Source of the DNA: Bdellovibrionota bacterium
GTDB taxonomy: Bacteria > Bdellovibrionota_C > UBA2361 > OMII01
NCBI GenBank assembly: GCA_040402735.1
Contig: JBBALZ010000004.1
Span: 1-41,972 of the forward strand
Direction of reading: 5' to 3'
DNA: 41,972 nt
Made by a program: the position numbers and the translations under genes. Below are positions 16,853-34,100 of the stretch, one piece after another. The notes beneath the pieces were generated by a model. It had not been told where the DNA came from. It did no database searches and saw nothing but the letters and a program-made list of their open reading frames with translations. Positions within the stretch are counted from its first letter, which is position 1. The number at the start of each line of letters is the position of its first letter.

Positions 16853-18382
16853 GTGACTCGCCCAACTCTGCTCTGTATTCTAGATGGTTTTGGACTAAAC
16901 CCAAATCCAATCGGCAATGCTGTTGCTTTAGCTAAAAAGCCAGTAATCGATCGACTCTTAAGGGACTATCCCAACGCCACCCTAACTACTTTTGGCGAAC
17001 GTGTTGGCCTTCCAGCAGGGCAGATGGGTAACTCTGAGGTCGGACATTTAAATATAGGGGCTGGGCGAGAGGTAGAGCAGTGGCTATTAAGAATATCACG
17101 CGCTCTTGCCGGCTCGTTTATGCGTGAGTCACAGACTTACAAGAGTTTTCTTGCAGCTAGCAAAGGACGACGGACTGTGCACGTTGTGGGGCTGTTAAGC
17201 ACTGGTGGTGTCCACTCTCATCAGGATCATCTAAAGCTTCTTCTTTCATTACTAACAAACGATCTTCCCGAAGCACAGATAGCTCTGCACCTGCTTAGCG
17301 ACGGTCGAGATGTCGCTCCTAGCGCGTTCCTTCCTGATCTAAAAGAGCTACAAAAGCTAATTCAGACCATTCCTAATTGTTCAATACGTTCAATATGCGG
17401 TCGATTCTATGCGATGGATCGCGATAAGCGCTGGGAGCGAGTTCAAGCAGCATACCAAGCGATTGCTGCCGGGATTGGCACTTCGATCACCTGTCCAGCT
17501 TCATACATACAGGAGTCCTACGCTAAGGGTGTCACAGATGAATTCCTTGAGCCGGCGGTTTTAGGCTCTTATCCGGCTTCTGCCGACGACGCTTATGTTT
17601 TCTTTAACTTTCGTGAAGATCGTATGCGCGAGATCGTATCTGCGCTCTGCTCTCCAGCATTTGCTGAGTTTGATCGTACTATTCCGCTTCCTGCACGCGA
17701 GCGCGTACTGTGTTTTACCCAGTACGATCACGCGCTACAGCTACCGTTTCTCTTTGAACAGGTTGAGATTAAAAATCACCTCGGCGAGGTAATCGCTCAT
17801 AGCGGTATTAAACAGCTTCGAATCGCAGAGACAGAAAAGTACCCACACGTCACGTATTTCCTAAACGGCGGTATTGAACAGGCGTACACTGGTGAGGATC
17901 GCCAGCTTGTTCCCTCTCCGCGTGATGTTAAAACCTACGATCTCAAGCCTGAGATGAGCGCTCACGGTGTCACTGAACTCGTTGTACAGGGGCTACGTTC
18001 CGGCAAATACGGACTTATTGTCGTCAATTTTGCCAACTGCGATATGGTCGGTCACACAGGCGTAGTAGCCGCCGGGATAAAGGCTGTAGAGACAGTGGAT
18101 CGATCTCTGGGAGAGATCCTGAATGCTCTGCAAGATGTGCACGGACAAGCGCTGATTATTGCCGATCATGGCAACGCTGAACAGATGATTAACTACACAG
18201 ATGGGACTCCGCACACCGCGCATACGACATATCCGGTTCCGGTAATTTTAGTAGATTTCTCGAAGCAAGTTACGCTACGGCCTGATGGTGCTCTGTGCGA
18301 TGTAGCACCGACCGTTCTTGAAATGCTGCAGATAGCTAAACCTGCTGAGATGACGGGCGAGTCACTCATTCAGCGGCGTTAA
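16853..18382 (+). CDS. gpmI: 2,3-bisphosphoglycerate-independent phosphoglycerate mutase
   Basis: ILDGFG, GQMGNSEVGHLNIGAGR, GGVHSH, DGRDV, GRFYAMDRDKRW, AETEKYPHVT, DMVGHTG, ADHGNAE. Confidence 0.98.
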   Translation: MTRPTLLCILDGFGLNPNPIGNAVALAKKPVIDRLLRDYPNATLTTFGERVGLPAGQMGNSEVGHLNIGAGREVEQWLLRISRALAGSFMRESQTYKSFLAASKGRRTVHVVGLLSTGGVHSHQDHLKLLLSLLTNDLPEAQIALHLLSDGRDVAPSAFLPDLKELQKLIQTIPNCSIRSICGRFYAMDRDKRWERVQAAYQAIAAGIGTSITCPASYIQESYAKGVTDEFLEPAVLGSYPASADDAYVFFNFREDRMREIVSALCSPAFAEFDRTIPLPARERVLCFTQYDHALQLPFLFEQVEIKNHLGEVIAHSGIKQLRIAETEKYPHVTYFLNGGIEQAYTGEDRQLVPSPRDVKTYDLKPEMSAHGVTELVVQGLRSGKYGLIVVNFANCDMVGHTGVVAAGIKAVETVDRSLGEILNALQDVHGQALIIADHGNAEQMINYTDGTPHTAHTTYPVPVILVDFSKQVTLRPDGALCDVAPTVLEMLQIAKPAEMTGESLIQRR

Positions 18383-20421
18383 GTGATCACTACCCCCGTA
18401 GGCGGACTCTGGCGAGTACGAATTGTCTTCTTACCATTAGTGGCGGTTACTCTGTAGCGAACCGTATACTTTCCTGGCTCTAATTTACGAACAGTTACCA
18501 CATTTCTCGAACTAACACGGGTAATCCGCTGCTTTGAACCAGCTTTGCGTATCTCGACTTCGTACCGCACTCGAATACCTTTAGAAGCGAGAGCTGCCAG
18601 ATCTTTTTTCTTCAATTTCTCAAACAGTCGCGGATCAACTCGCACGTCAGGTAGGGTGATTATAATAGTAGCGCCCTTTTGTCCCTCATTACGAATAACC
18701 TCTACTGACGGAGGCACCTCGATCCTGGCACCATCCTTTAGATCGATCTCCGGCAGCTCTCCCGGCTCCTCGTCTTGATTGTCATCCTCGCCTCCGCCTG
18801 TAGAGTCCGGCGGTGTGGCGGTTGGTGTGGGTGTGGGTGTGGGTGTGGGTGTGGGTGTCGCGGGCGGGCTATCACCCTTTGATACGAATAGGTAAGGTGA
18901 TTCAGGTAGCGGAGCCCCAATAACAGTCAGATTTGATGCCCAAGAGGAGAATGCTATATAAATTCCCCCCTCTCGATTTACTCCCAGGGCGACCGGCGGT
19001 CTGGAGAGTAATCCAGACTCTGGACTAACCTCGCCACTCCTTCCATCTCCCGCGACGCCGTTGCGCTTACTTGCTAGATACACAGGCAGATCACTACTGC
19101 CATCCTCTGCTTGAAGCCTCTTAAGATATACCTGCGGTACGATCTCTCCGCTTGCTCCATACTGGTAGATATTTTTACCCGTATCTGAGAAGGCCGCATA
19201 CCTACCGGTTGAATCAATCCGACCCGAGCTGACTGAGCCAGTACTAGGAACGCCCTTTGAATCCACGTTCACCTGTTGGCAAATCACCGGATCGCCCACG
19301 TAATCGGGGATACTGCACTTGGCTAATAGCGGTCGCTCGCGATCCGCGCCTACTCCGATCAAATTAGTCGGGCCTGCTTGAGGATAGTGAAGGAATGCTA
19401 TCTCGCGGCCACCAAACGAAATCGAGGGATGCGCGGATCTAGAGTTAGCGGGAATTATCGCCGATTGTGATTCCCTTGAAACGAGACGTGTTTCCTCAGT
19501 CAAAAGATCGCTCGAGTAAATCTGCGCTAATGTTGATACAACACCCGTTAGAACCGTTCCGCTACTTGCAAAAGCTAGCTTATGGCCATCAGGACTGATA
19601 GCCGGTTCACCCATTTCACAATCCGTTGACGCTGTCTGAATTTTTTTAATCTCTTCAATAACTATCGGCCCACTCATCGGCACAGTGATCTCTCTCCAAT
19701 ACACTATGCTGTTATAGCTTGTGGTTTGTTGTATCCCAAGATCGCTGGCTAACGACCTAAAAGCTACGCGGAATACGAGCGCCCCGGCGCTATCCTCACC
19801 AACCAAGGCAACGGTGGGTTGATCACTATGATTGTTCGCGCCCCTTGCCGTCGTATTATCGTATCTACCCGAAACGAGCACCGTTTCATTCCTAGATGGC
19901 AGGTGCAGATAGACCTGCCTTGGATTCGGCTCACTTGTGCTTGGCCTTTGATAATCTACAACCAAATCCTCGGCATCAGAGGTAAAAGCTACCGCGAATT
20001 TACCCTCGATTACCCTACTCACTGAGGGAGTTGTAGCGCCCGTTATCAGATCTATTCCATCACCCAATCTGGTTGGAAATTTGCCATAGATATTTTTACT
20101 TACCAACTCCACAGACTCTCCTTGCCTCATAAAGACATTAGGGGAGCGCGATGAATTCCCTTCAAAATGTAGTCCAGCCACTAAATTGACGGCTCCTGAA
20201 GTAAACACAAGCACTGAGGCGTCAGGCGAAAAGAGCGGTTCTGCGCTACCGGGATGTATACCATCTAGAGCTCGTGGTGCGGCAGGGCGGCCATCTTCGT
20301 TAAATCCTACAGAGATCTGCAGGGCATCGCTCAACTCTAAGTCACCTGCAGAGGAGCTTTGGGGCAGGAAAGCCGCAATTACAACAGCGCAAACCTCGCA
20401 CCAAAAAACGATTCGGCCCAT
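18379..20421 (-). CDS. Secreted TolB/PD40-like beta-propeller protein with PT linker and basic FN3-like C-terminal domain
   Basis: Signal peptide; repeats of P.(V/I)S.DG..(A/V)F.S.A.NL; (PT)n plus acidic linker; K/R-rich C-terminus containing RNVVTVRKLEPGKYTVRYRV. Confidence 0.75.
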   Translation of the reverse strand: MGRIVFWCEVCAVVIAAFLPQSSSAGDLELSDALQISVGFNEDGRPAAPRALDGIHPGSAEPLFSPDASVLVFTSGAVNLVAGLHFEGNSSRSPNVFMRQGESVELVSKNIYGKFPTRLGDGIDLITGATTPSVSRVIEGKFAVAFTSDAEDLVVDYQRPSTSEPNPRQVYLHLPSRNETVLVSGRYDNTTARGANNHSDQPTVALVGEDSAGALVFRVAFRSLASDLGIQQTTSYNSIVYWREITVPMSGPIVIEEIKKIQTASTDCEMGEPAISPDGHKLAFASSGTVLTGVVSTLAQIYSSDLLTEETRLVSRESQSAIIPANSRSAHPSISFGGREIAFLHYPQAGPTNLIGVGADRERPLLAKCSIPDYVGDPVICQQVNVDSKGVPSTGSVSSGRIDSTGRYAAFSDTGKNIYQYGASGEIVPQVYLKRLQAEDGSSDLPVYLASKRNGVAGDGRSGEVSPESGLLSRPPVALGVNREGGIYIAFSSWASNLTVIGAPLPESPYLFVSKGDSPPATPTPTPTPTPTPTATPPDSTGGGEDDNQDEEPGELPEIDLKDGARIEVPPSVEVIRNEGQKGATIIITLPDVRVDPRLFEKLKKKDLAALASKGIRVRYEVEIRKAGSKQRITRVSSRNVVTVRKLEPGKYTVRYRVTATNGKKTIRTRQSPPTGVVIT
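18824..18858. repeat. (GGTGTG)n hexamer tract encoding the Pro-Thr linker
   Basis: Five perfect units plus a partial unit. Confidence 0.9.
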
Positions 20422-20428
20422 GACGAAG

Positions 20429-20455
20429 TAATCGGCAGATATCGTATAAGCGTTA
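20429..20455 (-). promoter_or_regulatory. sigma28 (FliA)-like promoter, leaderless arrangement
   Basis: TAAC-N15-GCCGATTA versus consensus TAAA-N15-GCCGATAA. It ends 7 nt before the ATG at 20421; no Shine-Dalgarno. Confidence 0.6.
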
Positions 20456-20486
20456 GCTCGCAGTAGTAAATTGAGGCTCTATTTAC

Positions 20487-20503
20487 TTGGCACGCTTTCT
20501 GCT
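20487..20503 (+). promoter_or_regulatory. sigma54 (-24/-12) promoter
   Basis: TTGGCACGCTTTCTGCT has correct GG-N10-GC spacing and lies about 100 bp upstream of ORF 20601. Confidence 0.7.
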
Positions 20504-20600
20504 CACCAAATCACCAGGAAGACGCATTAGATGTACTGTCGTACTAGTTAAAGATAACGATTCCAACTGGATGGAATCATAAAACTGAAGCGGAGGCGCA

Positions 20601-21512
20601 ATGGAAGCGGTCCAAGGCATCAATAAGATACTATCTAACATACCGACCACTGGTTTAGTCAAGGCTATGGCCGATACCGGTAAGCCTGAGGGTGATTTTA
20701 ACTCTACCCTCAAGGCATTACTTTCCCCCAATAAATCAAATAAGGTCAGTGAAGAGGAATTATTTTCCGCTCTGGTTTTAGAGCGGATCAAGAAGACCAA
20801 GGGCGACTCTGCGCTCTCTGAATTCAAAACGATCTTCGAATCAACTAAGAAGCAACTGCAGAAGCCTGATGGATTTGTACCGTTGGAAGACGCAACGAAG
20901 CAGGCCCTCAAGGAGTTTAGAAACGCACAGAAGATCTCGAAAGAAGAGGCCGATTCGATCTACTCTCAAGCCTTTGCTGGAGCGCAGCTCGATCAGAATA
21001 AGGATGCCCTGTACGACAACCGAGGTGGTCCAAACGATCCGACGATGGCGGTAGCAGAGATGGAGCAGGCGCTACTGCTCAGCGGGGCCCTGATTGGGAA
21101 ATTCGATACTGGTACGGAGACAGCCCAAGCGCGATCTCTCGATGCGCCTAGCAACACAGCAGCTGGTAGCGGTGCTGGCGGAGGAGCAATCGGAACAGGT
21201 TCTGAGGTGAGTGGATCTGGTTTTCTATTTAAGCCGACATCTGAAAGTGATGGCAAGCTTGTGGTACTTCTCCCTCCAAGACTCGCCGGTCTGGTAAAAG
21301 GCTTATCTTTAGTTGGACCAAACGGAGAGGTGATTGAAGCCGGAAGGTTTACCGGAAACGGTAATGGAGGTCGCGACCACTACCGATTCTCACGACCAGG
21401 TGGACAATACGCCGACGGTCTAACAGTTCAAGCGGCACTAACAACAGGAGAGCTTGTTCGCTATACCATCAGGGAGACCTCGCAAAGAACTGAGAATATA
21501 CAACCAGGGTAG
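20601..21512 (+). CDS. Hypothetical protein with a helical N-domain, Gly/Ala/Ser linker and beta-rich C-domain
   Basis: GGAGG RBS, 303 aa, no Sec signal peptide; C-terminal GFLFKPTSESDGKLVVLLP...GNGGRDHYRF. Confidence 0.8.
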   Translation: MEAVQGINKILSNIPTTGLVKAMADTGKPEGDFNSTLKALLSPNKSNKVSEEELFSALVLERIKKTKGDSALSEFKTIFESTKKQLQKPDGFVPLEDATKQALKEFRNAQKISKEEADSIYSQAFAGAQLDQNKDALYDNRGGPNDPTMAVAEMEQALLLSGALIGKFDTGTETAQARSLDAPSNTAAGSGAGGGAIGTGSEVSGSGFLFKPTSESDGKLVVLLPPRLAGLVKGLSLVGPNGEVIEAGRFTGNGNGGRDHYRFSRPGGQYADGLTVQAALTTGELVRYTIRETSQRTENIQPG

Positions 21513-21568
21513 AAGGGTTGCTTTTAGCCTCGCCTCATTAGGGCAAAACCTGGTTTGATATAAATCTA

Positions 21569-21596
21569 TAAAGATGGCTCAGTTATCTCCCGAATA
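21569..21596 (+). promoter_or_regulatory. Possible sigma28-like promoter for motAB
   Basis: TAAA-N16-CCCGAATA, upstream of an AGGAGG RBS. Confidence 0.4.
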
Positions 21597-21627
21597 TCCC
21601 CTATGAGCTAACAGGAGGGCTATTCCC

Positions 21628-22488
21628 ATGGGAGTTATTCTCGGGATCATCGGAGTACTAGGAAGCGTACTAATTGGATTCATCGGACCTGGTGGTCCGG
21701 TTGAGGTTCTGTTTCAACCATACGAGTTCTTGGTTATCGCTGGTGGTATCGGATTTACTATCTTGATTTCCTCGCCCGGCGTAGTGCTCAAGGCGATTGT
21801 GCCAGGTATCATCGGTGCAATCAAAGGTAGCGGGGTTAACAAGGCCCTTTACAAGGATATCTTGGGTTTGATGGCCTGCGTATTTGATACTATGCGCAGA
21901 GAGGGAGTTTTAGGTATCGAAGGTGATATCTCCAATCCTCACCAAAGTGCCCGCTTTAACCGCTATCCACTTGCGGCACACAATCATCATCTTATGGACA
22001 CGTTGTGTGGTGCGTTACGACTATTCGTCGATGGAGTGGTCAATGCCTTTGAGCTTGATCGGTTACTCGACTCGGAGATAGAGACCCACCACGAAGAGGG
22101 ACTTCTTGCGCCCACTGCGGTGAAGACTATGGCCGACTCTTTCCCGGCGATGGGAATCGTGGCTGCGGTTCTAGGAATTATCATCACCATGCAATTTCTC
22201 GATGGTCCACCAACAGAGATCGGTCACCACGTGGCCGCTGCTCTCGTCGGAACAATGTTAGGAATCTTTCTTTCATACGGACTAATCGGTCCTGTTGGAA
22301 CAAAGATGGAACATAATGTAAGAGAGGTAACCGGCATACTGAAATGTGTTAAAGCAGGGCTCGTATCATTTGCTGGCGGGGCCCCTCCCGGTGTCGCACT
22401 TGAATTCGCACGCAAAACTATACCGAGTGCATTTAGGCCAACATCAGAGGAATTAGAGGCGATTCTTAAAGAGGCTAAGAAAAAATAA
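21628..22488 (+). CDS. motA: Flagellar motor stator MotA
   Basis: LFQPYEFLVIAGG, MRREGVLGIE, PAMGIVAAVLG, AALVGTMLGIFLSYG, EFARKTI. Confidence 0.95.
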   Translation: MGVILGIIGVLGSVLIGFIGPGGPVEVLFQPYEFLVIAGGIGFTILISSPGVVLKAIVPGIIGAIKGSGVNKALYKDILGLMACVFDTMRREGVLGIEGDISNPHQSARFNRYPLAAHNHHLMDTLCGALRLFVDGVVNAFELDRLLDSEIETHHEEGLLAPTAVKTMADSFPAMGIVAAVLGIIITMQFLDGPPTEIGHHVAAALVGTMLGIFLSYGLIGPVGTKMEHNVREVTGILKCVKAGLVSFAGGAPPGVALEFARKTIPSAFRPTSEELEAILKEAKKK

Positions 22489-22509
22489 GGTTTATTTCAA
22501 TTTAAATCC

Positions 22510-23784
22510 ATGGCCGATAGTAAGGACGATAACAAACCGACTATTATCGTAAAAAAAGGGGGGCACGGTGGTCACCATGGCGGCGCTTGGAAGATCGCCT
22601 ACGCCGATTTTACAACGGCTATGATGTGCTTTTTTCTCTGTATGTGGCTGATCAACACAGCATCAATTACTACCCGCCAAGCTATCGCTTCGTATTTTCG
22701 CAAACCTTCTATCTTTCAAGAGGGGTCAGGTCAGCCTCTCTTACTAGGTGGCGAAGGTATCCTGAATGATGCGCTTAAACCTCTTAAAGTAAAGGATCCG
22801 CGGCGCATTACCAAGGTTATAGAAGATGAAAAAACCTTCGGTGAAAGGGATAAAAATCTAGATAAACTCTACGAACAGGAAGGGCGAGTTGACCCCGTCA
22901 AAAATAAGGGACCAACAGAGATCTCAGGTTTAAACTCTGACAAGAAGACAGTTGAGGAATCTAGGAAAGAGATTCGCCTTAGAATTATCGCCGAACAGAC
23001 GAAGGGAGACCTTGAGCGCCTACTCAACTCAGTTCCGCCATCAGCACGCTTACCTGGCTCGGTTGAAGCTCGCGTTGACCCTGATGGGTTAAGCATCGAC
23101 ATTATGGATACAGATACATACTCAATGTTTGACAGCGGTAGCGCCAGGCTCCGTCCTGATGCCGAGGTAGCTTTTAAAGCTGTGGCTGATATCATCAAAA
23201 AATATCCTAATTACCTTGAAATTTATGGACACACTGATGCACAACCTTTTCCTACACATACTGGCGGATATACTAACTGGGAGCTGTCAGCAGACCGCGC
23301 CAACACTGCGCGAAGACTCCTTGAAAGCATGGGCTATCCTAGTGAAAGAATAGTTAGTGTGACCGGCAAGGCCGCAAGCGAACTCAGAAAACCAGCAACT
23401 CCGCTTGACCCGACTAATAGAAGGATTACCCTGAAATTACGTTTTCAAACTGCAACTGATTTCCTCAAAAATAAGGAATCAAAAGAGTACAATGACCCTC
23501 TCAAGGACCTGCTAGAAGAGGAGGCCGCTCGAAATGCCGCTAATAACACCCCACAACCGACACCGACTCCTGAGCAGATAGTATCAGGTGGGGTCTATCC
23601 TCCTCCGCCACCTGAGCCAACACCTTCAACACTAAGCACGGCACCAAAGGTGCAGCTTCCGGACGGCCCTCCTAAAACCCAGAACCCTGATTTTATGCCT
23701 AAAGACAAGATCTTTGAGGATAGTCCGGTGCTTGGGACTAGGAACCTAAATCCAGCCTCATTCATTTTTGAAAAAAATGAATGA
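22510..23784 (+). CDS. motB: Flagellar motor stator MotB with a Pro-rich C-terminal extension
   Basis: HGGAWKIAYADFTTAMM TM segment with the conserved Asp; OmpA-like GHTD, NWELSADRA and NRRI. Confidence 0.95.
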   Translation: MADSKDDNKPTIIVKKGGHGGHHGGAWKIAYADFTTAMMCFFLCMWLINTASITTRQAIASYFRKPSIFQEGSGQPLLLGGEGILNDALKPLKVKDPRRITKVIEDEKTFGERDKNLDKLYEQEGRVDPVKNKGPTEISGLNSDKKTVEESRKEIRLRIIAEQTKGDLERLLNSVPPSARLPGSVEARVDPDGLSIDIMDTDTYSMFDSGSARLRPDAEVAFKAVADIIKKYPNYLEIYGHTDAQPFPTHTGGYTNWELSADRANTARRLLESMGYPSERIVSVTGKAASELRKPATPLDPTNRRITLKLRFQTATDFLKNKESKEYNDPLKDLLEEEAARNAANNTPQPTPTPEQIVSGGVYPPPPPEPTPSTLSTAPKVQLPDGPPKTQNPDFMPKDKIFEDSPVLGTRNLNPASFIFEKNE

Positions 23785-23798
23785 GAATAGCTGGGCGA

Positions 23799-23842
23799 GC
23801 GCAATCTTGGCCCCATGATTAGCGCAAGAAGCCAAGTTGCGC
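23799..23842. other. Inverted repeat/hairpin after motB
   Basis: GCGCAATCTTGGC ... GCCAAGTTGCGC, about 12 bp with one bulge. Confidence 0.5.
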
Positions 23843-23874
23843 CGTAGAAGACAACAAACTCCTAAGTGCTCAAC

Positions 23875-24024
23875 AGGGCCTCGCAATTCTCCCGCTATCT
23901 ACTCGAAAGGACTGGCGTTCTTGCTAGGGATAAAAATGCGCGGCTAAATCCCGTTAAACTCATAAAATACAGTAGGTTCCGCGCATTTTTGGCCCTATTT
24001 AAGAGAAGAGAATTGCGAAGCCCT
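23875..24024 (+). mobile_element. MITE-like element, family A, copy 2
   Basis: 150 bp with 17-bp terminal inverted repeats AGGGCCTCGCAATTCTC/GAGAATTGCGAAGCCCT. Confidence 0.88.
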
Positions 24025-24035
24025 ACGCAGGGTTT

Positions 24036-24185
24036 AGGGCCTCGCAATTCTCCCGCTATCTACTGGAAAGGACTGGCGTTCTTGCTAGGGATAAAAATGC
24101 GCGGCTAAATCCCGTTAAACTCATAAAATACAGTAGGTTCCGCGCATTTTTGGCCCTATTTAAGAGAAGAGAATTGCGAAGCCCT
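24036..24185 (+). mobile_element. MITE-like element, family A, copy 3 (tandem)
   Basis: Direct tandem duplicate of copy 2 with a 161-bp period and about 2 substitutions. Confidence 0.88.
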
Positions 24186-24240
24186 ACGCAGGGTTTAGAT
24201 TAGTTGCCCAGCGGCAGGTGCCTAGTATACCCTACGACGG

Positions 24241-24615
24241 ATGCATCTGTTACCCGCTCTTGCAAGTATCTCTCTAGCTATATCTGTAGCCTGCGGAGCG
24301 TTCGGTGCACACGCGCTGCGGGGTATACTCTCACCATCGGATCTAGCCATCTGGGACAAGGCTGTTCTATACCAGATGCTCCATTCATTAGGGGCTCTGG
24401 TTATTACTCTCAACACTAATCTAGTCGCGTTGCAAGTAAGCATGCGTCGAATTGCCTGGCTTCTACTCGCATCAACTGTTGTCTTTTCGGGCAGTCTGTA
24501 CCTTTTGGTACTACTCCAGACGCGCTGGCTCGGCGCAATTACTCCTTTGGGTGGGTTAGGATTTATTGTTTCTTGGCTCCTGCTTGCGCTGCAACTTATT
24601 AAACACAGGCGCTGA
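24241..24615 (+). CDS. DUF423 (YgdD/TMEM256) membrane protein
   Basis: GAFGAHAL, YQMLHSL, FSGSLY, LGAITPLGG. Confidence 0.92.
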   Translation: MHLLPALASISLAISVACGAFGAHALRGILSPSDLAIWDKAVLYQMLHSLGALVITLNTNLVALQVSMRRIAWLLLASTVVFSGSLYLLVLLQTRWLGAITPLGGLGFIVSWLLLALQLIKHRR

Positions 24616-26607
24616 TCAGGGCATCGTGCTAAAGGTCACCACATCACTAGCCTGCGTAACGCCTAGTCTACTCTTCGGTCTCTTCGTCGATATCTCAACT
24701 GAGTACGATAGCCCAAAGACTGCGCCTGGTCGAAGATTCCTAAGCGTAACCGTATTTAACCGCGTTCTTATCTGCTTAACCTTCCTCGCCCTGCCGGAAC
24801 CATCTTCCGCGTGCGCGCTCTGAATAAAAGCAAACCCTCGCGGAGAAGAGACCTCCCAGTACCGTATCACATAGGTAATAACGAGATTGTCTGAATCATC
24901 CATTAACTGCTTAGCCCTATTTTTAGATATGCGCCGATTTTTCTGCAGCTTCTTGATCATAGCTGTCTGTTGCTGCGTCGATAACTGTGGCCGCACCTGT
25001 GGCAGCTCTACTTCAACCTCACCTGGCCTCACTATAACAACAGGCGTCGGCAAGCCTCCTGAGCCCGGAGATACAACGATAGGCTGATGGCCTCCGATAT
25101 CACCCGGATCACTCGTAGCTGAGGCACTTATCGTAGCTGTTGCTGTCGGTTGAAATGTAGTCTCGCCCGTAACTGTAGGGGTGGGCGTTGGGGTCACCGT
25201 GGTAATTCCTGAGATCCTATCAGGAGCACCTGCCTCGCCAACACTGATTGTCGGAGTGGGTGTGAGACCACCGAGGGTCAAACAGCTATGCGTCGTATCA
25301 AGTATCCCATCCTCAAATGCGATATCGACACGGCCTCTCTGTCCAGACCATCCCGGCGATCCTGAAACCAGGAAGCGTTGTAATTTACCGTTGAAAGATG
25401 CTTGGCACTCAGAGCCACCGGCTAAAGCCACCCCCTGCTCCTGTTCTGGGTCGGCTAGACAGTTGTTAGCTGGTATCAAACCAGCACAACCCAGCGCATT
25501 AATACTCACAAATCCGAGAGCGCCTCCGGTTGAGCCCTCAGCACTACGCAGAGCTACAACCTCCGCGGCCGAAGAGAACATCCCAATAAAACTCCCGCCT
25601 AGATGTTTTAAATTTGAGCCAAACTGCGCTGAATAATCCTCTTGCGGATTGTTTAAAACACATTGCGGCTGGGTATTAACTGCATCGAGTCCGTATACCG
25701 CTACGGACCCACGACCTAAATTAGATCGAGGCGATCCGATAACGTACGTAGACGCCCCAACCTGACCAGACACTACTAGCCCAGAATGCTCAGGAAAAGT
25801 ATTTTGAGAGATGACTAGTTCTTGAGGATCTGACTGCAACCCTATTCTTTGATAGATCATTCCCAGCTCTGCTATACCTGGTGCAGCAACGAGGATTCTT
25901 GCAAGAGCTCCAGTTGATCCAGATCCAACCTGAGAAAGTGACGAGCCCCAACCTGATCCAGCGCTCAAGGTCTCTGAAAAATCACTTGTAGGAATGAACT
26001 GACACGAACCATTCGATTGTGCCGAAACGGCAAAACCATCGATCCGCACCAAGCGAGGATTAGCGATTACAACGTTTGCCGCGCTGCTGCCACCAGATGC
26101 TCGTACAGCTTGCAACTCTTGACCAAACCCTTGTGGTCCCTGGGCCATGCCACAGGATGAATAGCGCAGACCTATCTCAGATATTACGCTCGTAAATAGG
26201 TACACTGCTCCCTCGGAATTGGTCAGAGCGCCAGGAGCACCAATAATTAGATCATCAATTAGATCCGCGTTGATGTCGTCTATAAATTGAATAGCAGATC
26301 CGAATCTCGCCGCTGTTTGCTCAGCAGTCGGACTAAGCACCTGCAGGACAGCCGCTGGCTGAACTGGGTCAAATAGATACACACGGCCCTCGCCCGCCGC
26401 CGCTTGCGGCGCTGCAACTGCTACTACTGAGTCGTGATCTGTTACTGTTCCTGGCCTACTACAAGCAACCTCAGCGCCAAATCTACCACCACTCTCAAAA
26501 CCTTGCATTGAAGAGTCAAAACGCAACCTAGTTTCTGGCTCGGCTTGAGCAGGCATACTTGCCAGTAAAGCGGTAACAAGCAGTGCTTTGCTCATAAACT
26601 GCTTCAT
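24616..26607 (-). CDS. Secreted FG-GAP (integrin-alpha-like) propeller protein with PT linker and basic FN3-like C-terminal domain
   Basis: Signal peptide ending AQA; repeats RFG...IGAPG...G.VYLF; Ca-binding-like DDINADLIDD; T/P linker; NTVTLRNLRPG in the C-terminus. Overlaps the kinase stop (ATGA). Confidence 0.78.
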   Translation of the reverse strand: MKQFMSKALLVTALLASMPAQAEPETRLRFDSSMQGFESGGRFGAEVACSRPGTVTDHDSVVAVAAPQAAAGEGRVYLFDPVQPAAVLQVLSPTAEQTAARFGSAIQFIDDINADLIDDLIIGAPGALTNSEGAVYLFTSVISEIGLRYSSCGMAQGPQGFGQELQAVRASGGSSAANVVIANPRLVRIDGFAVSAQSNGSCQFIPTSDFSETLSAGSGWGSSLSQVGSGSTGALARILVAAPGIAELGMIYQRIGLQSDPQELVISQNTFPEHSGLVVSGQVGASTYVIGSPRSNLGRGSVAVYGLDAVNTQPQCVLNNPQEDYSAQFGSNLKHLGGSFIGMFSSAAEVVALRSAEGSTGGALGFVSINALGCAGLIPANNCLADPEQEQGVALAGGSECQASFNGKLQRFLVSGSPGWSGQRGRVDIAFEDGILDTTHSCLTLGGLTPTPTISVGEAGAPDRISGITTVTPTPTPTVTGETTFQPTATATISASATSDPGDIGGHQPIVVSPGSGGLPTPVVIVRPGEVEVELPQVRPQLSTQQQTAMIKKLQKNRRISKNRAKQLMDDSDNLVITYVIRYWEVSSPRGFAFIQSAHAEDGSGRARKVKQIRTRLNTVTLRNLRPGAVFGLSYSVEISTKRPKSRLGVTQASDVVTFSTMP

Positions 26608-28703
26608 GGCTGGCTCCTATGCAAACGCTTAAAAGGCTGCGCTAGCATCGTTCTCAAGATCAATCCACAACACACTCCCCAGAGAGTCCCAGTAACTACT
26701 GGTATGAACCACCCCACAAGAAATAGCGAGAATTGTATTGCAGCAATGAGCACGAGGGCTCCAATTACCGCAGTGATCAATGCCACACCGCTTAAAGAAC
26801 AGATCAGAAGGGATAGAAGTACAGCGCAGCTATATGCTATCGCCCCGGCGCTAACTGCCGACGGTTGTCGAATCCAATCCTGCTGAAGTAGATTAGACGC
26901 CGCAGTTGCATGAATCTCTGCGCCAAAGGTCTGCTGGTCATACGGAGTAATAAACGCATCTCGCTGAGAGGCTCCAGTGCTGCTGCGTAATCCGAGGCCA
27001 ACAAATACTATCTTACCCTCAAAGACACCCTTGGGCAGTGACGCTTGAGATTCTGAGACCACAAGCTCGTACGGAACGGTCGGAATTGAGCGGCCTGCTC
27101 CGTAAAAATTTAAGAGCGCGTCACTGGGTATCGGTGCTGTATCTTCCCGATCAAGCGCTACTGCCATCTCTGATAGGGTATTAATCGAAGGGAAGACCTC
27201 AGATTTTACACTAGGAAAAGCCCGTACCCTTCCAAACTGCATCGGTAGACCAACAACACCGATACCGACACTCTCTGTCTCAAAGAGCTCAGCCGGCTGG
27301 AGAAGCTCCTCTAGGAGAAACGCTCCATTAATCGTCGCACGCTGGGACAATCCCAACGCAGCCCCTAAAACAGTAGGAACCCTCTTCATAGCTTCTGCCA
27401 GAGCTAGATCATTATCGTCTTCTCGACTGGCATCGGCAAATATTACATCAAAAACAACTCGCTTTGCCCCAGCGTCCGCCAGCACATTTATGAGTTTTGT
27501 GTGTAGCGTTCGCGGCCATGGAGCAGTTAATGGCACCCCAAGCCTCATATAGCTCTGCTCATCCATCGACACCACTACGATTCCGGGATGCGGCGTAGCT
27601 GGCCCACGAAGGCGAAAGAGATTATCGACATAATTAACCTCAATGCTAGAGAATATCTCGGTTTGAGCAATCGGGAAGACAAGTAAGGCGCATACAATTA
27701 CCCACAACGCATTCGCTATTGAAAATCGGAGTCGTACACTGCCCATCCGAGTGCTATCAGTAGCAACACTAGCGACCGCTTTCTCACCTATCGTTGCTGA
27801 AAGCAACTTACTTGCTTTGCCTGATCTATATGATGTCTGCACATCTAATGCATTCGCCAAAAGCTGTGCCGCCTGCATTCGGGCATCTGGATCACGATCC
27901 AAAAGGCCATCTACTCCCTCAAGCAACCACTGCGGAGCATCTCTCCGCAATTCATGTAAGGATCTGGCAGGGGCCTCTATTTTAGCCAAGATCAGCTGCG
28001 CTGGATTATCCTCAATAAATGGCGCGGTTCCAGTAAGGAGTTCAAACAGCACCACACCGAGTGCGTAGAAATCAACCGCATGCGTCGCCATCTCTCCTCG
28101 CAGGACTTCCGGCGCTACATATCTAAGGGTTCCAAAAACATCAGAGGCGAACATCGTCGCTGGGGCAGATGTTGACCGTGCTATTCCAAAATCGGTTATC
28201 TTCAGAGTTCCATCACTACTGACTATAACGTTTGCTGGCTTAAGATCTCTATGAATTATCCCGACTGCATGTACTGCTGATAAGCCGCGCATCAGCTGGC
28301 CAGCCATATCAATAACGGTGCTGCAAGGTAATCCGCCATTGGTAATAGCTACCTGTAGCGATTGCCCTGCCAGATACTCCATCGTGTAAAAGATAGACTC
28401 TCCGTCCTGACCAAAGTCAAAAGTCCTGACAACGTTCTCGTGTTGAATCTTATGGGTTAGGCGCACCTCTCTGAGGAAGCGATTGATGGCTGAATGGGCC
28501 TCCGGGCCGCCCGTATGGAGCACTTTGATCGCTACTCCAGTTACCCCCAGGACCAGATCTTCAGCAAGGTACACCGTACCCATTCCACCGCGTCCTAGGG
28601 GCCGAATAATTCTGTATCGGCCGGCGATAACACAGCCCGGCTCAAATCCGAGACACGCTCCGACAATTGGCTCTGAGAACTGTTTGAAGTCGGCTAACTG
28701 CAT
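26604..28703 (-). CDS. Hanks-type Ser/Thr kinase with C-terminal CHASE2 sensor and TM helices
   Basis: LGRGGMGTVY, VAIK, HRDLKPAN, DFG, YVAPE; then a TM, IVVVSMDEQS..PWPR..A.VVFDVIF, GKIVFVG, GAEIHATAASNLL and 3 TMs. Confidence 0.9.
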   Translation of the reverse strand: MQLADFKQFSEPIVGACLGFEPGCVIAGRYRIIRPLGRGGMGTVYLAEDLVLGVTGVAIKVLHTGGPEAHSAINRFLREVRLTHKIQHENVVRTFDFGQDGESIFYTMEYLAGQSLQVAITNGGLPCSTVIDMAGQLMRGLSAVHAVGIIHRDLKPANVIVSSDGTLKITDFGIARSTSAPATMFASDVFGTLRYVAPEVLRGEMATHAVDFYALGVVLFELLTGTAPFIEDNPAQLILAKIEAPARSLHELRRDAPQWLLEGVDGLLDRDPDARMQAAQLLANALDVQTSYRSGKASKLLSATIGEKAVASVATDSTRMGSVRLRFSIANALWVIVCALLVFPIAQTEIFSSIEVNYVDNLFRLRGPATPHPGIVVVSMDEQSYMRLGVPLTAPWPRTLHTKLINVLADAGAKRVVFDVIFADASREDDNDLALAEAMKRVPTVLGAALGLSQRATINGAFLLEELLQPAELFETESVGIGVVGLPMQFGRVRAFPSVKSEVFPSINTLSEMAVALDREDTAPIPSDALLNFYGAGRSIPTVPYELVVSESQASLPKGVFEGKIVFVGLGLRSSTGASQRDAFITPYDQQTFGAEIHATAASNLLQQDWIRQPSAVSAGAIAYSCAVLLSLLICSLSGVALITAVIGALVLIAAIQFSLFLVGWFIPVVTGTLWGVCCGLILRTMLAQPFKRLHRSQP

Positions 28704-28981: not shown

Positions 28982-31018
28982 CTACTCCCGCCTCCGAGTA
29001 CTAGCACGTCGCTGTGTTACCATTGTTCTAACTGCCCGCGACACAGCGCTGCACAGCTGCGAGAATGCTGCTTTCGCCTCGCGATAATCTTTCGAAGGTT
29101 TAAAGCCCGAAACCGCGACCTGTCTCTGAAGCGTGCGGTCGTCCACTACCGCAAAGATCTGCATAACATTTATTCGATTAACCGAGGCTGGCAGTTGCAC
29201 TTCAATATCGGCTGCACCTGCCGTCAGCGGTATGTTTACCGGCGAGCACGCATAGGTCCACTTACCATCCCGACCAAACACTCTTAATGGGGCGCTCCTG
29301 CTAGTCGCCACATCTGAGATAGACACTAAAAGCGGTGTGCCGCCACTGACTACACTCGATGAGACTGTAAGTTGTGGCCTCTTAATCCGACCAGGTGCAG
29401 TCTTGGGTGTTGGGGTTGAGGTTGCTGTTGGAGGAATCACTACCGGAGTTGAAGTTGGAGCTGGAGGAGTGAAAGTCGGCGAGGGCGTAGCAGTTGGCGG
29501 AATAGGAGTTGCAGTCGGCGGCACCCAGGTTGCTGTTGGAGGAACTGGCGTTACTGTTTGAGATGGTACAGGAGAGGCAGTCGGATGCGCAGGTGTGCTA
29601 GTAGCACTGGGGGTTACATTTGGGGTGCTGGTAACAGTTGGTGTTGTCGTTGCGGTAGGTGTTACAGCACTTTGACAGTACGCCAGCGCCGACACAACAG
29701 CCCCATAAGCATTGGCAATGGCTGAGGTTAGCACTTTGCCACTAAGACTTGAGTACGGTTGGCCCGAAGAGAGTATAGCGCTTTTAACCTGTTGATGGGT
29801 GAGCATACCACTACAGGCAGACTGCACTAACAGGGCTACACCAGAGACCTGCGGAGCAGCCATAGAAGTGCCACTTAAGTAAGAGTAGCCATTGCTAAGA
29901 TAGGTACTGATGATACTAGATCCGGGGGCTGCGATATCAACGCTTGTAGCTCCATAATTAGAAAAACTTGATAGAGTTCCAGTTGAAGTAGTCGATGCGA
30001 CTGCAACTACATTATCACTCGAGTAGCTACTTGGGTACGAAGGAGTAGTGTCGTTATTTGACGCTGAATTGCCTGCAGCAGCAACAAAGAGGATCCCAAC
30101 ATCGCCACTAGACTTAATTGCAGCGGCTAGTGTGCTGCTGTAGGCGCCACCACCCCAGGAGTTATTACTAACAACGATCTTATGGCCCGCACGTCGCAAT
30201 GCTATGCCGTAATTTATAGCCTTTACAGCATTTGAAAGGCTCCCACTTCCAGAGCTTGAGAGAAACTTAGCAGCTGCAATCTTCGTATTCCAAGCAACGC
30301 CAGCCACTCCTTGCCCGTTGTCTCCACGACCACCAAGGATACCAGCACAGTGCGTGCCGTGCCCATTATCGTCAAGCGGATTACCAGTATTCAGAATAGC
30401 ATTAATTCCATAAACATCATCAACGTATCCATTATTATCGTTGTCTACTCCATCACCAGCTATTTCGCCCGGATTTCTCCACATATTAGCCGCAAGATCC
30501 GGATGCGCGTAGAGCACCCCAGTATCAATCACGAGCGCTATAATATCGCCTGCGCCAGTGCTCTTATCCCATGCTGCCGGCAACGACATATAGCTACTGG
30601 CATACTGTTCACCATAGTAGGTATCGTTAGGCACCGCAGAGCTAAAATATGCGTTGTTCGATTCGCAGCGATACCTGCCAAGAAGCTTCCTCATCCACTT
30701 GCGCTCTTTGGCTCGCTTACACGGATCGAGCTTACGTGTGTAGGGCCTCGGGGTCTCATCTGCCACGCTGCGTGTGGTTAGCTTATTTCTAGGCTTGACT
30801 AGTATGACCCCTGCACCGAGCGTATCCGCAACTCTGTCTTGGGGTATAATTCCGACTAAACCGGAATCAATGGCAGCAAGGGCTTGCGTCCTTCCGCGCG
30901 CCGAAATCACTGCTCCTTCGAATACAAGCCGCTGCTCCTGCGACTGCACCTCCGGCGTATTTAAAATTAATATTAAATTAAGGAGAGACAACAGAGGAAC
31001 AAACAACTTCAACTGCAT
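28982..31018 (-). CDS. Secreted subtilisin-like (S8) serine protease with long Pro/Thr linker and C-terminal domain
   Basis: Catalytic motifs VIDTG, HGTHCAG, AAAGN and GTSMAAP. Start placed at ATG 31018 (MQLKLF signal peptide); the ORF call extends to 31045. Confidence 0.93.
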   Translation of the reverse strand: MQLKLFVPLLSLLNLILILNTPEVQSQEQRLVFEGAVISARGRTQALAAIDSGLVGIIPQDRVADTLGAGVILVKPRNKLTTRSVADETPRPYTRKLDPCKRAKERKWMRKLLGRYRCESNNAYFSSAVPNDTYYGEQYASSYMSLPAAWDKSTGAGDIIALVIDTGVLYAHPDLAANMWRNPGEIAGDGVDNDNNGYVDDVYGINAILNTGNPLDDNGHGTHCAGILGGRGDNGQGVAGVAWNTKIAAAKFLSSSGSGSLSNAVKAINYGIALRRAGHKIVVSNNSWGGGAYSSTLAAAIKSSGDVGILFVAAAGNSASNNDTTPSYPSSYSSDNVVAVASTTSTGTLSSFSNYGATSVDIAAPGSSIISTYLSNGYSYLSGTSMAAPQVSGVALLVQSACSGMLTHQQVKSAILSSGQPYSSLSGKVLTSAIANAYGAVVSALAYCQSAVTPTATTTPTVTSTPNVTPSATSTPAHPTASPVPSQTVTPVPPTATWVPPTATPIPPTATPSPTFTPPAPTSTPVVIPPTATSTPTPKTAPGRIKRPQLTVSSSVVSGGTPLLVSISDVATSRSAPLRVFGRDGKWTYACSPVNIPLTAGAADIEVQLPASVNRINVMQIFAVVDDRTLQRQVAVSGFKPSKDYREAKAAFSQLCSAVSRAVRTMVTQRRASTRRRE

Positions 31019-31026
31019 AACCAGTG

Positions 31027-31071
31027 CCATCGGCGCTCTGAGCACAAAACTTTAGTGTCTTTTGCCGATAG
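31027..31071. promoter_or_regulatory. Overlapping divergent sigma28-like promoters
   Basis: Minus strand: TAAA(GTTT)-N16-GCCGATGG, 8 nt before ATG 31018. Plus strand: CAAA-N15-GCCGATAG, pointing toward alpha-2-macroglobulin. Confidence 0.5.
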
Positions 31072-31195: not shown

Positions 31196-34100
31196 GTGGG
31201 TCTGATGATTACTCGTACTATTTCTTGCTTAGTGGCTTTATGCCTCAGCATTATCTCTCTCGGCTTTAATTCAACTCTAGCGGGTGCTCAGAATTCAGCG
31301 GTTAACAGTAACCCTGCTAGGTTACTCCGAGTAACACCAAGCGTACCCGATGCTCAGTCCATATCTGAGATAATCCTACAATTTGACCGGCCCGTGGTAG
31401 CTCTAGGACGAATGGAGCGAAAGTCTAACGAGATAGCGATCTCTATCTCTCCAGCACTAGCGTGCGAGTGGCGTTGGCAGAACTCTTCAGCGCTAGCCTG
31501 CATACTGAGCGCAGCAAACGCAGCGCTTCCAGCAACTACCTACACAGTTACAGTACCAAAACTTTTTGACCTTACAACCTCAGTTACTCTTGAGAGTTCG
31601 CAGCAAATTCTATTCACAACGATGCTGCCAGCGATAACTCTAGCCTGGCTAGACACCTGGCTTACCCCAACGCGCCCTTTAATAAGGCTCTCTACTAATC
31701 AGACAGTAGCGAAGGACTCTTTAGCAAAATCCCTATACTTTGAGGACTCACAGAAAAGGCGCTACGAAGTTATTACGGCGGAGTACACACCAGAGTCCGA
31801 TGAAGAGTTTCAGCCTCACGATGTAGGTAAACAGTGGGTGATCAACCCAGCTAATGAACTTCCCGCTAATAGCTCCATCTCACTGAACGTATCGCCGGGG
31901 CTATCATCAAATCAGGGACCTCAACTTGGAATAGAGCGGCGCAAAATTGCTGCATTTCACACCTTTTCTGAGTTCGCATTTATCGGCATTACCTGTCGCG
32001 ATTTAAGTGGCAAGACCGTAGTTATGCGCGCCGACAGGGAAGCGGAAGCTACTACGAGCCGGTGCGATCCGCTAGGTGCAATACAACTGACTTTCAATGC
32101 CCCGATTAGTAAAGATAAAGTAGCTAGCGCCTTCAGCTCCAAACCGGATTTGCGTGGTGGTCGCACTGATTTCGATCCGTGGGAATCAATCCTATCAAAC
32201 GCGCGAATTAGTGGTACACATTTAAAAGATCAGCACTATTATCTAAGCCTTCCCTACGGCCTTAAAGCCGATACAACATATACATTCTCTGCTAAAGCTA
32301 ACGCCATGCAAGATGAGTTTGGACGCGCGCTCACAAAGGATACCGCTGTTACCTTCACGACCAACCACCGCGCAGCACGCTTCGTGATCGACAATCACCA
32401 TGCAGTGCTCGAACAGGTAGGCGATTCTAAACTCCCAGTTATAGTTAACAACATCGAAACACTCGCACTGGCCTACTCTGCGCAGACTTCACAAGGCACG
32501 CAAAGCAACCTAAGCACTCTACTGCGCCCATACGCGGCACCGAACATAGCCTATCCTTTTCCAATCGATATTCGCGCGATGCTCGGGGGGCGCTCTGGTG
32601 TCATTCACGGCACACTCACTGGCAAGCCCGCTCAAAAGTACGACAACACTCAGCGCTTCTTCGCTCAGGTGACTCCCTATGCAGTGCACGCTAAAATTGG
32701 CCACTATAACTCACTGGTTTGGGTTACCTCCATGGCAACTGGCGAGCCGATTAGCGATGCTCAAATTTCAGTATTTGTAGACACCCTTACCAAGCTGTCG
32801 ACAAATCCTATCTCGCTGGCAGACGGTGCAACCGATCACAACGGAACTGCCACACTTCCAGGTCTCTTATCGCTAGACCCAAAGATGCAGTACACCAACC
32901 AGTGGAATGATAGTGAACCACGCCTTTTTATCCGTGTTACAAAGGGTGAGGAGATGGCGTTGGTGCCGCTATCCTGGGACTACCAAGTATATGACGGAGA
33001 GGTGTATCCCTCATCTCAGGCTCAATACGGCCACATTCACACCTGGGGTACAACGGCACAGGGACTCTATCGACTCGGCGACACCGTTCAATTCGCTCTG
33101 TGGGTTCGTGATCAGAACAACAACAGATTCATAGCTGCTCCACGCCAGGGATATTCTCTAGAAGTTCAAGACCCTACCGATAAGGTCGTTCTGAGGATCC
33201 CATCAGTTTCCCTCTCAGAATTCGGCTCTTTTGCCAGTGAATTTACCACTCGGAGTGACGGCGCAGTGGGCTGGTACACATTCGTGCTCTCACTGCCGTC
33301 TACCGGGCAGAGTTGGCAACCACTGCGGGTGCTAATCAGCGATTTCACTCCTGCCCCCTTCAAGGTTACCACGGATATCCAGCAATCCGAATTTAGAGCA
33401 AACGATCAGGTCACCGTACGCACTGAGGCCAGACTTCATGCAGGTGGGCCGTATGCCGGCGCTAGTGTTCGTATTTCTGCTCGTATAGTGGCGTCAGAAC
33501 TTACTCCTCGAGATCCACAAGCCAAGGGATTCACCTTTTCGACCTCTTTTGATGAGCATACGGTAACCCAGCGTGACGAACACCTCGATGCAAAAGGTGA
33601 TCTAGCTTCTACCTTTGACCTTATTAACGTGCCGCTTGCATACGGGAAACTTATCGTTGAAAGCTCTGTCCGCGATGATCGCGGAAAGTTTGTCTCTTCG
33701 CGCTCTCAAGCGCAGTTTATCGGACGCTCTAGGTTTGTCGGCATCGCGCAGGATGATTGGATCCTTCAATCAGGTAAGATAGCTAAACTGCGAGCTGTTG
33801 TAGTTAACGACCGTGGAGATATTATTCAAGGTGATAAGGTTCGTTTTAAGTTTGAGTACGAGGATATTAAGGTCGCTCGTGTCAAAAGTTCAGGCAACGC
33901 CTATACCAATCGATACGAAAAGACCTGGATTACCGTTCATACCTGCGAGGCTACTGCACAAGCCACAGGCCTATCATGCTCCTTCACCCCTACCAAGCCA
34001 GGCCGTTATCGATTTAACGCACACGTCACTGATACAAACGGACGCGATCACATCAGCACGATTGAACGCTGGGCATCGGGTCGCGGTGATATAGTATGGG

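Follow-up and report, generated by a model that had tools for sequence, protein, structure and literature searches.

Why should two secreted proteins with entirely different N-terminal repeats end in what looks like the same strongly basic domain? This question is raised by a contig of a Bdellovibrionota bacterium (JBBALZ010000004.1 of assembly GCA_040402735.1, positions 1 to 41,972 of the forward strand; this whole 41,972-nucleotide stretch is called the window below), on which two genes encode the proteins P0001 and P0002. A preliminary description of the window had suggested that the shared C-terminal domain (CTD) is an export or surface-attachment tag of an undescribed secretion or display pathway. 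Our analysis points elsewhere. The CTD is a new, uncatalogued, lineage-restricted variant of the FN3 domain, and gene linkage indicates that much of its family works with CHASE2 receptors. The two proteins are organized as follows.

18379..20421, minus strand: P0001 gene, 680 amino acids, predicted exported PD40-type beta-propeller with a basic C-terminal FN3-like domain (open reading frame and translation).
20347..20421, minus strand: signal-peptide-like N-terminus of P0001, residues 1-25, ending in SSA ahead of GD (heuristic judgement from sequence).
18808..18870, minus strand: Pro/Thr linker of P0001, SPPATPTPTPTPTPTPTATPP, residues 518-538 (from sequence).
18754-18807, minus strand: acidic spacer of P0001 following the Pro/Thr linker (from sequence).
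18382..18753, minus strand: CTD of P0001, residues 557-680, cationic FN3-like beta-sandwich with one inserted helix.
24616..26607, minus strand: P0002 gene, 663 amino acids, predicted exported FG-GAP-type beta-propeller with the same CTD (open reading frame and translation).
26542..26607, minus strand: signal-peptide-like N-terminus of P0002, residues 1-22, ending in AQA ahead of EP (heuristic judgement from sequence).
25090..25266, minus strand: Thr/Pro-rich linker of P0002, residues 448-506 (from sequence).
24619..25089, minus strand: CTD of P0002, residues 507-663, FN3-like sandwich with a two-helix insertion (AlphaFold2 model and hhalign).

The layout originally described for both proteins, a signal peptide followed by a passenger, a Pro/Thr linker and a K/R-rich domain, was confirmed from the open reading frames, Pfam matches (a single PD40 repeat in P0001, E 5.3e-6; FG-GAP in P0002, E 9.1e-5) and calculated isoelectric points (pI). 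In case of P0001, the CTD has a pI of 10.7 and a net charge of +15 while the passenger has a pI of 4.7, and the linker consists purely of Pro and Thr; the corresponding values for P0002 are 10.9, +13 and 4.4. Neither protein has a hydrophobic C-terminal segment, in agreement with the reported lack of a transmembrane anchor, and the positions first given for the two domains (18379-18714 and 24616-25053) lie within the domain limits found here.

Homology of the two CTDs is not apparent from the pair itself. Direct BLASTP comparison gave a non-significant top segment (11 of 34 identities, E 0.055), and phmmer and jackhmmer searches with the P0002 CTD alone retrieved only itself in this genome at a cut-off of E 1e-3. 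Because these single-sequence searches from the P0002 domain stayed empty, profiles were required to link the PD40-type and FG-GAP-type subfamilies. Using profiles of 26 PD40-type and 29 FG-GAP-type CTDs, which include homologues from related genomes, hhalign returned a probability of 98.2% and an E value of 4.5e-14 over 106 columns. This argues that the CTDs of P0001 and P0002 are homologous, a relationship that we consider secure at the profile level, and the motif-by-motif alignment of the preliminary description is essentially the same as the hhalign profile alignment. The source genome (2.7 Mb, 173 contigs, 82% complete) encodes six CTD proteins, three of the PD40 and three of the FG-GAP type, with the CTD as the last module in each. 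The third PD40-CTD gene, P0003 (L001:5997-8099, minus strand, equal to G000:C15:13996-16098), contains one in-frame stop (…NIYR*APTT…), which reflects either a pseudogene or a sequencing error; the upstream piece (open reading frame L001:7596-8099) bears the signal peptide and shares 65% identity with the P0004 N-terminus.

To which fold the shared domain belongs could be answered with predicted structures. AlphaFold2 models of the P0001 CTD (pLDDT 86.1, pTM 0.76) and the P0002 CTD (pLDDT 90.6, pTM 0.82) are beta-sandwiches with one and two inserted helices, respectively. Structure comparison against 48,161 representative PDB chains yielded FN3 domains for all of the top 50 matches (Z 9.4-10.7, about 90 residues aligned), with root-mean-square deviations (rmsd) mostly of 1.9-2.8 Å and at most 3.7 Å. 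Foldseek gave 62 matches at E<=0.001 with cytokine-receptor FN3 domains on top. The same assignment follows at the sequence level, where the CTD profile matches fibronectin 1fnf (E 4.7e-7) via an N-x-x-T-L-x-x-L-x-P-G-x-Y motif. Both hallmarks of the FN3 superfamily, the seven-strand sandwich of about 90-100 residues and the C-strand Tyr together with the L-x-P-G-x-Y tyrosine corner, are present, and the core motif is well conserved over 80 CTDs (Y64 94%, L91 91%, P93 81%, G94 99%, Y100 91%). The CTD is plainly FN3 in fold, though divergent and with a helical insertion. It shares with the FN3 domains of extracellular proteins the seven-strand sandwich (Z up to 10.7, rmsd 2.1-2.6 Å, about 90 residues aligned), the C-strand Tyr, the N-x-x-T-L motif and the tyrosine corner, but differs from them by the insertion of one or two helices between strands, a net charge of +8 to +40, a score below the Pfam fn3 threshold, and its occurrence always as a single copy and always at the extreme C-terminus.

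None of the available domain models describes the CTD. The CTD falls below the gathering threshold of Pfam fn3 (PF00041); six of the 80 CTDs had matches at E<=0.01 (best 0.0019), and P0001 and P0002 had no fn3 match. MtxA_IG-like (PF22433) weakly matched two of the 80 at E<=0.01 (best 0.0031); the corresponding structure 4Z29 was not among the listed fold matches, which does not argue against a relationship. The commonest Pfam match was a partial one to CopC (PF04234; 20 of the 80, best E 1.1e-4), spanning only positions 35-84 of the 92-position profile. For P0001 it scored 20.1 bits in the whole protein, which is below the cut-off of 23.3, and 23.5 bits when the domain was taken by itself. 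Searching genome contigs with the P0001 CTD returned two Methylocucumis CopC-like open reading frames and no CTD family members. One Methylocucumis CopC-like protein (L076:2724-3119) contains the strand pair KLEPGKYTVRYRV, identical to that in P0001, and this common strand pair, of the form L-x-P-G-x-Y-T-V-x-Y-R-V in the CTD and CopC alike, explains the weak CopC matches of the family. His residues of CopC have a role in copper binding. We rejected a CopC identity since the match is partial and the CTD has no His where the Methylocucumis protein has them; the CTD could also not supply the amino-terminal His of CopC because it is not N-terminal. A FecR domain (PF04773) was likewise rejected, with an hhalign probability of 0.08% against four FecR domains of the class and no Pfam match in the 80 CTDs. 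The ESM Atlas gave only sub-threshold look-alikes (up to 0.86; Ig_J, Y_Y_Y, PPC, fn3), and the scan of 80 domains found no confident Pfam or NCBIfam model.

A profile of the six CTDs was used to determine the size of the family, retrieving 351 clusters (50% identity) at E<=1e-3 among 1.84 billion protein representatives. Counts of position, signal peptide, linker, pI and passenger refer to the best 150 of these 351 clusters. One full CTD is present in 147 of them; the remaining three, giant repeat proteins, have a match confined to the FN3 core motif. The domain lies at most three residues from the C-terminus in 132 of the 147 representatives and more than ten residues away in nine, with a maximum of 31; among the matches listed it is never repeated and never followed by a further domain. 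The same is seen in relatives, where 64 of 69 open reading frames have the CTD within three residues of the stop codon, and in metagenome contigs searched with a nine-row alignment of close relatives, where the domain ends exactly at the stop codon in all ten CTD reading frames (eight loci); the nine that match the full-length profile have a tail of 0. A signal-peptide-like N-terminus was found heuristically in 95 of the 98 full-length members listed.

Passengers of the 83 full-length members listed are FG-GAP (20), PD40 (15), Ldl_recept_b (10), DUF5050 (7), FG-GAP_2 (4) and SGL (3); a few beta-helices occur, and almost all of the passengers are beta-propellers. In one related family of genomes the passengers are RCC1 propellers. 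Overall, the propellers that bear a CTD come from at least six different families. In three small genomes of the family with RCC1 passengers (G031, G065 and G066) the CTD ends RCC1-propeller proteins of 1,231-1,687 amino acids after long Thr/Pro repeats. A CGCG-x-x-D-x-D-x-N-x-N-G-x-x-D-C-L-D-P motif, thrombospondin-type-3-like or MopE-like, stands just ahead of the CTD at the loci L070, L075 (G037:C2) and L074, and Cu-binding_MopE matches occur in the CTD proteins L127 and L126.

Taxonomically, we surveyed 97 genomes of the phylum, all at least 85% complete except for the source genome, which is counted among them. The CTD is present in 50 of these, namely the source genome, 23 of 29 others of the same family and 26 of 44 from other families of the order, in one to seven copies per genome. 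It is absent from all 23 genomes in other orders of the class. Judged by these searches, the family is found only in one order among the genomes covered. The idea of a real, uncatalogued and lineage-restricted domain family is thereby upheld, with 351 clusters, one order and no curated model. The outcome for the profile search proposed in the preliminary description, which had anticipated many strictly C-terminal hits behind Pro/Thr linkers on signal-peptide proteins, is mixed: terminal position, signal peptides and the variety of passenger families hold, while the genes are few per genome and a Pro/Thr-rich linker is found in only 41 of 128 representatives.

Charge and conservation set the CTD apart from the rest of the protein. 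Among family representatives in the matches listed, the median pI is 11.1 for the CTD compared with 4.6 for the passengers, and over 80 sequences the net charge of the CTD has a median of +17 (range +8 to +40). Its second half is nearly free of acidic residues, and positions 83, 101 and 114 hold conserved basic residues. Near-invariant columns of the full-length alignment all fall within the CTD, making it the best conserved part of these proteins.

An indication of function came from gene neighbourhoods. When the neighbours of the relatives' CTD genes were clustered, one family dominated, that of CHASE2-domain proteins. P0002 itself belongs to such a pair, with the following features upstream.

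26604..28703, minus strand: Ser/Thr kinase-CHASE2 receptor gene (Pkinase E 1.7e-52, CHASE2 E 5e-36).
26859..27662, minus strand: CHASE2 domain of the kinase receptor, predicted periplasmic, residues 348-615, pI 4.8.

In the window sequence, the kinase-CHASE2 gene ends and P0002 begins within the same four nucleotides, ATGA, where stop and start codons overlap, and this kinase-CHASE2/FG-GAP-CTD gene pair is seen again in relatives. Altogether, a CHASE2 gene lies directly upstream of a CTD gene on the same strand in 17 loci, with gaps of -72 to 149 nucleotides. Six of these have a Pkinase-CHASE2 gene (ca. 699 amino acids) followed by an FG-GAP-CTD gene, with stop and start codons overlapping in four. 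In the other 11 a CHASE2-Guanylate_cyc gene (ca. 657 amino acids) is followed by one or two PD40-CTD genes, except that in one the next gene is short, of a different passenger type and unscanned for domains. The cyclase/PD40-CTD pair is also found on two metagenome contigs. At the metagenome locus L099:4698-6399, the PD40 gene behind a CHASE2 cyclase loses its frame before the CTD (the reading frame stops at 6254, tblastn places the CTD at 6001-6399), which is due to either a frameshift or an assembly error.

For a systematic count, 136 CTD matches in the 97 genomes were compared with the best 150 of 177 CHASE2 matches. At least 42 of the 136 lie within 6 kb of CHASE2, 41 of them on the same strand (CHASE2 upstream in 34, downstream in 7), whereas about one such pair would be expected by chance (hand estimate with about two CHASE2 genes per 3-Mb genome). 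Pairs occur in at least 33 of the 50 CTD-positive genomes, covering eight taxonomic families and two gene orders, and in one genome scored as CTD-negative the pair is cut off by a contig end (L091). Besides CHASE2 genes, the recurrent neighbour in relatives' flanks is a small lipoprotein gene (ca. 130-138 amino acids, no Pfam match), convergent and just downstream of PD40-CTD genes in eight relatives' loci (L021, L023, L024, L030, L034, L035, L037, L039) and five metagenome loci (L096-L100), often with one or two paralogous lipoprotein genes.

Secreted partners encoded beside CHASE2 receptors have precedents. CHASE2 genes adjoin those of FecR-domain proteins, NsrA and MtxA (PMC5192318, PMC9239204, PMC13001267, PMC4439547). 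FecR-domain partners occur in the Burkholderia BiofilmReg operon and the Campylobacterota cAMP cluster (PMC5192318, PMC9239204). In the best-studied case, CHASE2 cyclases of Sinorhizobium sense a plant protein via the outer-membrane partner NsrA (PMC13001267), while the environmental signals of CHASE2 domains are stated as unknown (PMC5192318). Like these partners, which are extracytoplasmic and are thought, or for NsrA shown, to feed signals to the receptor (PMC5192318, PMC9239204, PMC13001267), the propeller-CTD proteins are encoded beside CHASE2 receptors. In contrast to them, the CTD is not FecR, and the propeller-CTD proteins are an additional partner of one order only; in this class a giant FecR+TPR protein likewise adjoins CHASE2 genes. 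MtxA of Magnetospirillum (PDB 4Z29) is a secreted protein of unknown function, and the gene immediately downstream of its own encodes a CHASE2 adenylate cyclase. It resembles the CTD proteins in its signal peptide, an FN3-like Ig domain with an L-x-P-G motif and the CHASE2-cyclase neighbour, but differs in having TPR helices after an FN3-like domain that is internal, an acidic C-terminal part and no propeller (PMC4439547). In the literature searched, we found no paper tying CHASE2 to FG-GAP, PD40 or an FN3 CTD, although supplements such as the gene-cluster tables of PMC9239204 may list such neighbours.

The FecR+TPR protein (ca. 1,150-1,230 amino acids, Pfam scan on three) is the constant neighbour of CHASE2 genes of the class both in CTD-negative genomes and in this genus (L078, L080, L081, L083, L085, L089, L091; G000:C91:7314-10688 and G000:C21:20126-23656), and it is similar to the NsrA/FecR partners known for CHASE2 cyclases. 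Its gene is directly upstream of the cyclase gene in other orders and divergent from it in this genus, and the protein ends in YNF, YSF or similar, resembling the C-terminal signature of outer-membrane beta-barrels.

We therefore tentatively favor, at a probability of about 0.4, a reading in which the propeller-CTD proteins are order-specific accessory or co-sensor proteins for CHASE2 signalling that share a common cationic tether, rather than cargo of a new secretion pathway. P0001 and P0002 would be Sec-exported beta-propeller proteins, and the CTD would be an uncleaved tether that holds a variable acidic propeller 'head' on a polyanionic envelope component. This may place the propeller beside the membrane receptors it serves, allowing it to act as an extracytoplasmic accessory or co-sensor protein. 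The co-sensor part is suggested by the fact that about one third of CTD genes are co-transcribed with CHASE2 receptors, either kinases or nucleotide cyclases, and the tether part by the terminal position, the frequent flexible linker, the extreme positive charge and the conserved arginines. In GW modules and SLAP-type regions, which belong to monoderm bacteria and bind teichoic acids, a strongly basic module at the protein terminus keeps an acidic passenger on anionic polymers of the envelope. The organism studied here differs in having outer-membrane genes (OEP/TolC, an O-antigen ligase domain, secretins), and the CTD differs in being an FN3 fold. By analogy, non-covalent anchoring of the GW/SLAP kind would most likely be the mechanism of the CTD, for which an anchoring role is plausible. 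We infer the tether and co-sensor roles, the ligand and the compartment, which may be the periplasm or the cell surface.

Several observations weigh against the co-sensor reading. The tether idea draws only on charge and position. Of the 136 CTD genes, 94, including P0001, are not near a listed CHASE2 gene, and this genome pairs only one of its six CTD genes and one of its three CHASE2 genes. CHASE2 is not the sole context of the CTD because the three small genomes with RCC1-CTD proteins lack CHASE2 altogether. Conversely, 30 of the 47 CTD-negative genomes still possess CHASE2, which thus does not depend on the CTD family. Further, the linkage counts come from related genomes and are not independent samples. 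The job of the CTD is independent of propeller type and persists where CHASE2 is absent.

The same facts bear on a closer form of partnership, in which the CTD would be a universal plug that fits interchangeable propeller 'antennae' directly onto the periplasmic CHASE2 domains of kinases and cyclases, making the receptor gated by a partner protein instead of a small ligand. The appeal of direct docking is that the two operon types differ in output (kinase or cyclase) and in propeller (FG-GAP or PD40/YWTD) but have CHASE2 and the CTD in common; the linkage is also retained across eight families in two gene orders. Charge seems to fit as well, with a CTD pI of about 11 facing CHASE2 periplasmic domains that are acidic to neutral (pI 4.8-7.0), and MtxA, which is likewise secreted and carries an FN3-like domain, offers a parallel in that its gene immediately precedes one for a CHASE2 adenylate cyclase (PMC4439547). 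However, since the passengers equal CHASE2 in acidity, charge gives no reason to prefer CHASE2 as the target of the CTD. A dedicated plug also sits poorly with a majority of CTD genes unlinked to CHASE2, with three genomes that have the CTD only, and with CHASE2 managing without the family in 30 CTD-negative genomes, and we regard docking as rather unlikely. At the opposite end, the CTD could be an ordinary structural FN3 domain, a stalk, spacer or oligomerization module that was inherited and shuffled without specific binding and whose charge balances the acidic passengers. The FN3 assignment of its fold is clear, the core shows the usual Tyr and L-x-P-G-x-Y motifs, and propellers combined with FN3 or Ig domains are common architectures, FN3 domains of ROS1 and Sevenless being among the fold matches. 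Spacer FN3 domains are usually tandem and internal, whereas the CTD is always single and always last. Moreover, it holds the nearly invariant columns of the protein, and selection for a surface that binds polyanions is indicated by its conserved surface arginines and by 55 positions from which acidic residues are almost excluded; we find a mere spacer quite unlikely.

Recognition of the CTD by a dedicated, undescribed export or surface-fixing machinery, following the logic of the CTD of the type IX secretion system (T9SS), is the reading with which the window was originally described, and it appears very unlikely to us. It draws on the strictly terminal position, often behind a Pro/Thr linker, on signal-peptide proteins of several families. 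The T9SS CTD is an Ig-like sandwich as well, and its TIGR04183 type A form follows the same plan as the domain studied here, with about 100 residues folded into a beta-sandwich at the very end of proteins that have a signal peptide and various passengers. Known sorting signals indeed do not match, as had been stated for T9SS, PEP-CTERM and MYXO-CTERM, which would leave room for a new one: NCBIfam returned no T9SS, PEP-CTERM or other sorting-domain model for the 80 CTDs at E<=0.01, and TIGR04183-type/Por_Secre_tail T9SS CTDs had no matches in the whole genome at its 82% completeness. The SprA_N model of the T9SS translocon had no match in this genome, but it was equally silent in all 14 control genomes. 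The last 60 residues of P0001 and P0002 are charged beta-strand sequence free of hydrophobic stretches, unlike the short motif, hydrophobic helix and basic tail of PEP-CTERM, MYXO-CTERM, GlyGly-CTERM or LPXTG proteins. A route across the outer membrane exists since each of the 31 genomes searched in the genus has two secretins (T2SSL (GspL) is sub-threshold, in 4 of the 31). Yet only one to seven genes per genome carry the domain, unlike what is seen for the T9SS CTD, and their passengers are almost exclusively propellers. No cleavage motif conserved at the linker-domain junction is apparent by eye in the alignments, and no conserved machinery lies beside the six genes of this genome or in relatives' flanks. 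The neighbours of the six, which include iPGM, MotAB, DUF423, an RND efflux operon, a Wzy_C protein, lipoate ligase and a PP2C-cNMP protein, share no secretion or sorting gene, and apart from CHASE2 no gene type is common to their surroundings. The recurrent neighbour is a sensor and not a secretion gene. A confident match to ordinary FN3 had been named in the preliminary description as a finding that would speak against a new pathway, and at the fold level such a match is what we obtained. The pathway idea is not supported by these results.

Other genes of the window complete the picture of the two loci. P0001, unlike P0002, has no CHASE2 gene alongside. Its locus has the order DUF423, MotB, MotA, an open reading frame of 303-320 amino acids and the CTD gene, and this synteny is kept in one metagenome contig. 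The 303-amino-acid reading frame (20601-21512, plus strand) has no Pfam match and is divergent from P0001 and upstream of motA/motB; a 320-amino-acid counterpart occupies the equivalent position in the metagenome locus L092. MotB (22510-23784, plus strand) has a long Pro/Thr-rich C-terminal extension past its OmpA domain, showing that this organism has Pro/Thr linkers outside its surface proteins too. Directly upstream of the kinase-CHASE2/FG-GAP-CTD pair, a secreted S8 subtilase is encoded on the same strand (28982-31045, minus strand). At 31196-39186 (plus strand) lie a gene for a bacterial alpha-2-macroglobulin (1916 amino acids) and, overlapping it with its start, a PBP1C-type transglycosylase/transpeptidase gene, which form the usual A2M-PbpC pair.

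In conclusion, the CTD is a clean uncatalogued family and a candidate for domain databases, and it is one more case in which secreted proteins from uncultured bacteria carry a highly basic module at their C-terminus. If it were only a lineage-specific FN3 spacer, the finding would be an ordinary one. The linkage to CHASE2 is the substantive result. It presents the propeller-CTD family as a second kind of CHASE2 partner, in which several propeller families share one tail, and the translational coupling of exported propellers to CHASE2 kinases together with their tight linkage to CHASE2 cyclases provides defined pairs with which partner-protein gating can be tested. If docking were true, CHASE2, whose ligands have been unknown since the domain was defined, would be gated by a partner protein, and the propeller would set what is sensed.

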